Positions 33,622 to 34,530 of a DNA stretch of 36,178 nucleotides are shown one piece after another. The position numbers were made by a program, and so were the translations under genes. Source of the stretch: Seison nebaliae (Eukaryota); the NCBI GenBank assembly GCA_023231475.1, contig JALJEE010000702.1:1-36178 (forward strand), written 5' to 3'. The notes below the pieces were generated by a model, which was not told the origin of the DNA, made no database searches, and was given only the letters and a program-made list of their open reading frames with translations. Position 1 is the first letter of the stretch; each line of letters starts with the position of its first letter.

Positions 33622-34530
33622 ATGGCTCACGAATAGTTTAATTTTTTAATTTCTTTTAAATCATCATGTCATTTATAAATATCATTGACGATGTTAGCGA
33701 TTACTTATTCAAATTGTTACTCATAGGTGATTCGGGTGTCGGCAAATCATGTCTATTATTGCGATTTTGTGTTAATTTTTTTTCTTATTAAACTTTCCAT
33801 TAATTTCTCGCTTTATACAGGACGACATATTTACCAGTAGTTACATCAGTACCATTGGTGTGGATTTCGTTAGATAAAATATTGTATTTGCTTAATAAAT
33901 TCTTTTTTTATCTAGAAAATAAGAACGTTAAATATTGATGACAAATCTGCAAAATTACAAATCGTTTATTTATTCCTTCGTCATAATATAACGTCTTAAT
34001 TTCATTCGACAGTGGGATACAGCTGGACAAGAAAGATTTCGAACAATTACCTCTTCCTATTATCGAGGCGCTCAAGGAATAATTATTGTGTACGATGTTA
34101 CGGACATGGTTAATCACTTTTAAGTCGTAGAAGATTTTTATGTGATTTTTGGTATAGGAAACGTTTAATAATGTGCGACAATGGTTGACGGAAATTGATC
34201 GATATGCAAGTGAAAATGTTCTGAAATTACTTGTTGGGAACAAGAGCGACTTGACAGATAAAAAGACTGTCGATCACGAAACAGCTAGCGTTAGATTTCT
34301 TTCACATTCTTTTTCTTAAAATATTCTTAAAATAGAAATATGCCGAACATCTACACATTCCATTCTTAGAAACAAGCGCAAAAGATTCGACGAATGTCGA
34401 ATTGGCGTTCTACCAAATGGCCGAAATGATCAAAGGAAAATATAAGCCAAATCCAACAGAAAACGCCTCAAATATTCAGCCATCAAATGATCAGGAAGAC
34501 GTACCAGTACCGGGTGGTTGTTGTAAGTGA
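33622..34530 (+). CDS. RAB1: Rab1/Ypt1 small GTPase (absent from the ORF track because its exons are short)
   Basis: [80 protein letters not shown], prenylation end GGCCK*. Introns: 33636-33697, 33771-33820, 33869-33915, 33964-34012, 34109-34157, 34290-34335. Confidence 0.95.

Follow-up and report, generated by a model that had tools for sequence, protein, structure and literature searches.

Departures from the ancestral donor signal of spliceosomal introns have been described in several eukaryotic lineages. Among those treated in the sections of a comparative study on which we rely here (10.1101/2022.06.08.495308), Entamoeba is the sole lineage described with U at position +3, where it has nearly reached fixation in GT-AG introns, having displaced the ancestral purine. 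Its genome is intron-poor, its donors follow a strict hexamer (88-89% GUUUGU, 97-98% GUUUGN), and its U1 is reported to have changed to ACAAAC. The amoebozoan Mastigamoeba balamuthi has changed its donor consensus without intron poverty (2.5 introns per gene), with GUGCGC donors and a U1 of ACGUAC. Saccharomycotina, Giardia and Trichomonas carry U at +4, a one-position mismatch to their standard U1; their +3 remains A, their signals are strict and their genomes intron-poor. In the majority of lineages whose donors are atypical (yeasts, Giardia, Thecamonas and Micromonas, where the change lies at +4 or is wider) U1 has stayed standard, so a changed U1 is not the norm. According to the same sections, transformed donor signals are apparently concentrated in lineages that lost most of their introns, and the "selective loss" and "coevolution" models had not been satisfyingly tested to date.

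Seison nebaliae is an epizoic rotifer living on crustaceans, whose genes are compact and whose genome measures about 46 Mb; the parts of the genome paper used here state that genome and transcriptome are public (PMC8351084). The window analyzed is a contig of 36,178 nt and constitutes the whole sample: it holds seven spliced genes, in which 36 introns were counted, and one apparently single-exon gene. As in Entamoeba, U at +3 of these GT-AG introns is near-fixed and replaces the ancestral purine. The strict hexamer of Entamoeba is absent (GUUUGU in 1/36 introns, GUUUGN in 3/36), +4 being free and +5 A or G; the organism is an animal, is not intron-poor, and a U1 change is predicted for it, whereas in Entamoeba it is reported. 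The Seison system thus works like that of Entamoeba without being a member of it. It shares with M. balamuthi a consensus changed without intron poverty, although the change there lies at +4 and +6 and not at +3, and with the +4U lineages a one-position mismatch to canonical U1. Its closest counterparts by position are the Rab1 introns of bdelloid-like rotifers, which have the same positions, phases, length class and T-rich 3' ends with YAG, but differ in having A or G at +3.

Donor sites of Rab1 and the other spliced genes

The Rab1 gene was read from its letters and then compared with annotation and homologs (Table 1). Its spliced frame is open over 201 residues, and all six introns, 46-62 nt long, run from GTT to AG. 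The six junctions are identical in the NCBI model P0170 and in 11/11 Rab1 proteins (10 non-Seison proteins and the Seison paralog) aligned to the genome by a program that takes GT and GC donors alike, requires an AG acceptor and ignores +3. In-frame alternative donors up to 15 nt away remove conserved residues or add stops. The sequence-only reading had given internal exons of 73, 48+48, 96 and 132 nt with six GTT donors, and had held that protein conservation fixes these boundaries; the structure was re-derived as written, and the homologs and the damage done by nearby alternatives bear out the second statement.

Table 1. Features of the window. For Rab1 introns, fractions give loci with an intron at that position over loci covering it, among the matches listed, followed by the number with a GTT donor.
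Feature	Position	Strand	Details
Rab1 (SNEBB_011502 = P0170)	33622..34530	+	7 coding exons, 201 aa: 33622-33635 (14 nt), 33698-33770 (73), 33821-33868 (48), 33916-33963 (48), 34013-34108 (96), 34158-34289 (132), 34336-34530 (195); Pfam Ras E 1.8e-65; homolog alignments
Rab1 intron 1	33636..33697	+	62 nt, phase 2, GTTTAA; 18/38, 1 GTT; ancestral
Rab1 intron 2	33771..33820	+	50 nt, phase 0, GTTAAT; 20/62, 1 GTT; ancestral
Rab1 intron 3 (48+48 split)	33869..33915	+	47 nt, phase 0, GTTAGA; 58/74, 0 GTT; ancestral
Rab1 intron 4	33964..34012	+	49 nt, phase 0, GTTTAT; 84/86 (presence forced by search pattern, donors not), 2 GTT; ancestral
Rab1 intron 5	34109..34157	+	49 nt, phase 0, GTTAAT; 15/89, 3 GTT; animal-type
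Rab1 intron 6	34290..34335	+	46 nt, phase 0, GTTAGA; 52/61, 2 GTT; ancestral
DDX3/PL10, P0001 (SNEBB_011499)	16471..18766	-	5 introns, donors 18757, 18499, 18013, 17350, 17078, all GTT
Src-family kinase, P0293	8036..10626	-	5 introns, donors 9686, 9513, 9224, 8963, 8746, all GTT
PP4R3/SMEK	22168..27097	+	Pfam PP4R3; +3-blind parse, 6 predicted introns, all GTT
Coiled-coil gene, Lys-rich tail	5562..7227	+	7 predicted introns: 5 GTT, 1 GTC/GTT tie (5738/5741), 1 probable GTA (6252 or 6267)
SPATIAL/TBATA-like gene	12011..13600	-	Pfam and +3-blind parse, 5 predicted introns, all GTT
NAD_binding_4 gene (fatty acyl-CoA reductase-like)	29028..31022	-	Pfam and +3-blind parse, 2 predicted introns, both GTT
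tRNA-Phe(GAA) gene	1804-1878

The annotated Rab1 model also carries a doubtful N-terminal extension of 36 residues, absent from the paralog P0121 and from the other Rab1 proteins compared, which looks spurious. Its two upstream introns (one GTT, one GTC) were left out of every count. The region 33365-33552 probably contains introns of the Rab1 5' UTR; one spans 33365-33419 with a GTT donor, and the second, 113 nt long with a GTC donor, could by eye start instead at a GTT near 33500, giving about 53 nt. A second Rab1 copy matching P0121 was aligned to 33833-34401. Its exon letters are contiguous across introns 2 and 6, exactly 43 letters of the copy corresponding to 43 of exon plus 46 of intron in the window, and its depth is about 60% of that of the window. 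This copy is probably a retrocopy or an intron-poor paralog.

All 16 annotated introns counted (six in Rab1, five each in DDX3 and Src) begin with GTT. With the +3-blind aligner, the last three DDX3 donors (18013, 17350, 17078), all GTT, were recovered by 10/10 non-Seison homologs, one of which added a GTG intron missing from the annotation. The Src donors at 8963 and 8746 were recovered in 16/16 homologs, that at 9224 in 15/16, and those at 9686 and 9513 in 4/16 and 3/16. Four further genes were parsed blind, leaving the first eight intron bases unscored and allowing only GT or GC with AG; 18/20 of their introns (6+7+5+2) begin with GTT, the others being one GTC/GTT tie and one that is probably GTA. 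This parser is rough, since exons of the parsed genes were among the training data of its coding model and the intron model was trained on bodies from Rab1 and DDX3. It picked a wrong GTC donor at Rab1 intron 2, and for 4/20 of its donors a competing site scores within one unit; the GTT at 24125 in PP4R3/SMEK is a near tie with a GTA at 24134.

Taken over all 36 introns, +3 is T in 34/36, against 39.7% GTT among the GTs of the window (P=5e-12); for the six Rab1 donors taken alone, P=0.004 against the same background. Among the in-frame GTs that lie close to the 16 annotated donors but are not used, only 1/8 is GTT. A at +3 is depleted (1/36 vs 30% A, P=5e-5), and with a purine there in a single intron the donors depart from GURAGU. 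A purine is kept at +5 in 26/36 (17 A, 9 G; P=5e-6), G still being enriched (9/36 vs 4.7%, P=3e-5). U at +4 (14/36, P=0.13) and at +6 (20/36, P=0.42) is near background, and the last exon base is G in only 10/36. The donor consensus in the window is GUU-N-R. Introns are 42-78 nt long and their bodies 52% T; the acceptor has C or T at -3 in 30/36 and A (AAG) in 6/36, so that the pyrimidine-rich YAG end is present. GT..AG ends are found in 6/6 Rab1 introns, and in 36/36 by construction of the aligner and parser. The branch-point motif YTRAY occurs in 14/36 introns, compared with 15.4 in shuffles.

The probable non-GTT donor, that of the fourth intron of its gene, lies at 6252-6320 and is either the perfect canonical site GTAAGT at 6267, preceded by G, or GTACCG at 6252; by eye, a further in-frame option is the GTT at 6271, whose acceptor would be AAG. 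Should the site at 6267 be the one in use, its A at +3 may be offset by perfect pairing elsewhere. For the gene that carries it we presume the name IQCD-like, for which there is no Pfam match. Elsewhere in the window, the minus strand of 3360-5315 holds an open frame that spans 651 codons between stops and has no Pfam match, and broken reading frames at about 35400-36178 look by eye like the reverse-transcriptase region of a non-LTR retrotransposon.

Age of the Rab1 intron positions and donors in other lineages

A scan of metagenomes for the exon-5 motif of Rab1, with AG in front of it, supplied the comparison loci, at least 113 in number. From the 113 listed, four duplicates and nine loci below 65% identity were dropped, leaving 100; the 12 donors at shared positions in those nine loci were all GTA or GTG. 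Ancestry of positions was assessed for Rab1 only. Among the matches listed, all six Seison positions occur in other eukaryotes, the fourth being forced by the search pattern. Plant-like and fungal-like loci have five of the six in common with Seison, and the 48+48 split is itself ancestral, being found in 58 of the 74 covering loci among the matches listed. The mapping of Rab1 intron positions onto orthologs that had been proposed, made here on the metagenome loci, places all six in other eukaryotes, animals included.

Donors at the six positions, 247 among the matches listed, comprise 177 GTA, 53 GTG, 9 GTT, 7 GTC and 1 GC. In the animal-type loci that have the fifth position (17 among the matches listed), 6/50 donors are GTT, so that GTT is tolerated elsewhere at a low level.

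The outgroup consists of three bdelloid-like Rab1 loci only (L046, L060 and L064), the sample containing neither acanthocephalans nor monogononts. These loci group with Rab1 of Rotaria socialis at 98/97 in the Rab1 tree, in which Seison, on a long branch, is not joined to the bdelloids; for the last exon of L064 the nearest named full-coverage relative is Rotaria, at 83%. All six positions are present, among the matches listed, in L046, L064 and a further locus, L055. The three bdelloid-like loci have GTA or GTG in 17/17 donors, against GTT in 6/6 in Seison (Fisher P=1e-5), and G at +5 in 12/17; at 44-71 nt their introns are as short as those of Seison. The gene next to L046 seemingly has three more GTA introns, read from frames that also allow alternatives.

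Because the bdelloid-like loci share the positions with GTA or GTG donors, conversion in place is far more parsimonious than an invasion by introners. This was the central proposal of the sequence-only reading, in which old Rab1 introns switched from a purine to U at +3 where they stood. The proposal is supported by the sequences compared here, and the case is stronger than originally made since GTR is retained at these six sites in a rotifer outgroup. The change is not confined to +3, since +5 has relaxed from predominantly G in the bdelloid-like loci to A or G in Seison.

Proposed mechanism and alternatives

The splicing machinery of Seison likely reads intron starts by a changed rule. The proposed course starts from six Rab1 introns at inherited positions, which bdelloid-like rotifers, other animals, fungi and plants also have, with GTA or GTG donors, and leads to window-wide U at +3 in seven genes, with +3A depleted, the +5 purine kept and +4 and +6 near background. 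The ancestral positions and the window-wide +3U are beyond reasonable doubt. Very probably, the +3 base of each intron changed in place after the split from bdelloids, by selection and not by drift. As a final step, which we favour by a slight degree, the U1 base facing +3 would now be A, with ACUAAC replacing ACUUAC, so that a Watson-Crick pair is restored; short U-rich bodies and YAG would supply the remaining signal by intron definition. A U1 change is favoured because the described +3U lineage has such a U1, because a standard U1 would favour +3A, and because +4U and +6U are not enriched. Matches to the canonical U1 target GUAAGU average 3.28/6 in Seison and 4.76 in the bdelloid-like donors. 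If the U1 base facing +3 were A, the Seison mean would rise to 4.19, which is an arithmetic result of +3U and no evidence about U1. Rfam searches gave no U1 or U6 match in the 36-kb window, and nothing in six of the Rab1 comparison loci. The full reading, to which we assign a probability of about 0.45, is of an intron-rich animal in which the U1 5' end would have been re-keyed and tens of thousands of ancestral introns would have switched from A or G to U at +3 in place, GTA now being selected against, without prior intron loss. The sequence-only reading had likewise argued for a shift at the level of the spliceosome and against introners: for Rab1 the second part stands, and the first remains a matter of interpretation.

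A possible, though doubtful, alternative is the same conversion in place with a standard U1, +3U being selected at a later step or by proteins, through G-U wobble with the U6 ACAGA box, altered contacts of Prp8, SNRNP27, U1-C or LUC7, or a factor that binds U next to the donor. According to the section consulted (PMC11347140), the part of the intron that U6 binds lies at +3 to +5, and the sections of the comparative study used here note that pairing with U6 ACAGA could be better for GUUUGU and that U1 has stayed standard in most transformed lineages (10.1101/2022.06.08.495308); the one probable GTA donor left in the window also agrees with it. However, full pairing of the U6 type predicts enrichment of U at +4 and +6, where the counts stay near background, and under a standard U1 the depleted +3A should still help.

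Relaxed constraint, under which +3 became irrelevant and drifted to T in T-rich introns, is improbable. It draws on the 52% T of the bodies, against which the six Rab1 donors alone reach only P=0.02, and on the background-like +4 and +6. Yet the 16/16 annotated donors (P=3e-5) and the 34/36 overall (P=4e-8) exceed that level, T at intron positions +4 to +10 ranges only from 14 to 64%, and a GT inside an intron body is followed by T in 11/27 cases.

A U1 register shifted by +1 (GTT-R-A-G-T), or a transformed minor spliceosome, is very improbable. The shift predicts the common A at +5 (17/36), but it also needs G at +6, seen in 2/36, a background level (P=0.51). U12-type introns are marked by an RTATCCT donor and a CCTTAAC branch motif near the 3' end; neither the donor nor CCTTAAC at -38 to -10 was found in any of the 36 introns. 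On the side of the minor spliceosome, the minus strand of 2654-2778 gives a full-length match to the Rfam U12 snRNA (37.6 bits, E 4e-4, below the gathering threshold of 53), and in the alignment one can recognise the branch-pairing region, the Sm site and the 3' stem-loop. As judged from this alignment it is likely a divergent U12 gene, and Seison may keep a minor spliceosome. In bdelloids, minor-intron loss is described as extreme but incomplete in the parts consulted of a pan-eukaryote minor-intron survey, whose main text does not name Seison. A U12-branch-like TTCCCTTAAC at 24142-24151, complementary to the branch-pairing region of the candidate U12, lies early in the longest PP4R3 intron (78 nt), about 50 nt from the AG and without a U12 donor nearby.

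Introner invasion or parallel regain, in which the old introns would have disappeared and elements bearing GTT would have taken their exact places, is scarcely credible. Intron lengths are uniform, and the second Seison Rab1 copy, apparently without at least introns 2 and 6, shows that intron loss does occur in the lineage. Against this, 6/6 Rab1 positions match the bdelloid-like set and none is new, bdelloid-like introns are equally short, and the six Rab1 introns carry neither terminal inverted repeats nor a target-site duplication. Similarity among the 36 bodies does not exceed that among dinucleotide shuffles (mean pair score 17.4 vs 17.4; maximum 32 vs 30-42), in agreement with the earlier impression that they share no visible similarity; introners are excluded in the window because the bodies are unrelated and, in Rab1, lack terminal repeats. 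The chance that the boundaries are wrong, or that the Rab1 gene is no longer spliced, is negligible given the intact frame, the agreement of all 11 homologs aligned, the damage done by nearby alternatives and the same pattern in DDX3 and Src.

Implications for Seison and for donor evolution

The GTT-donor observation is confirmed as real and correctly read, its scope being one contig. In the literature searched, which left supplements and most subscription journals outside, no description of +3U donors in Seison or rotifers was found. The main text of the Seison genome paper (PMC8351084), in the form seen, has "intron" twice, "splic" once and "snRNA" never, and the passages seen of four further works (PMC10125929, PMC11347168, PMC3033335 and 10.1101/212811) contain nothing on +3U. 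Relative to these sources, what is new is near-fixed +3U in an intron-rich animal, and what was already known is +3U with a changed U1 in the intron-poor Entamoeba.

Near-fixed +3U at ancestral positions (6/6 in Rab1) in such an animal would show that a full intron set can take on a new donor rule one site at a time. In Seison, gene predictors would be expected to misplace donors if their training came from other animals. If the reading with a re-keyed U1 is true, it would mean that a core snRNA and its substrates coevolved wholesale, with no intron loss beforehand.
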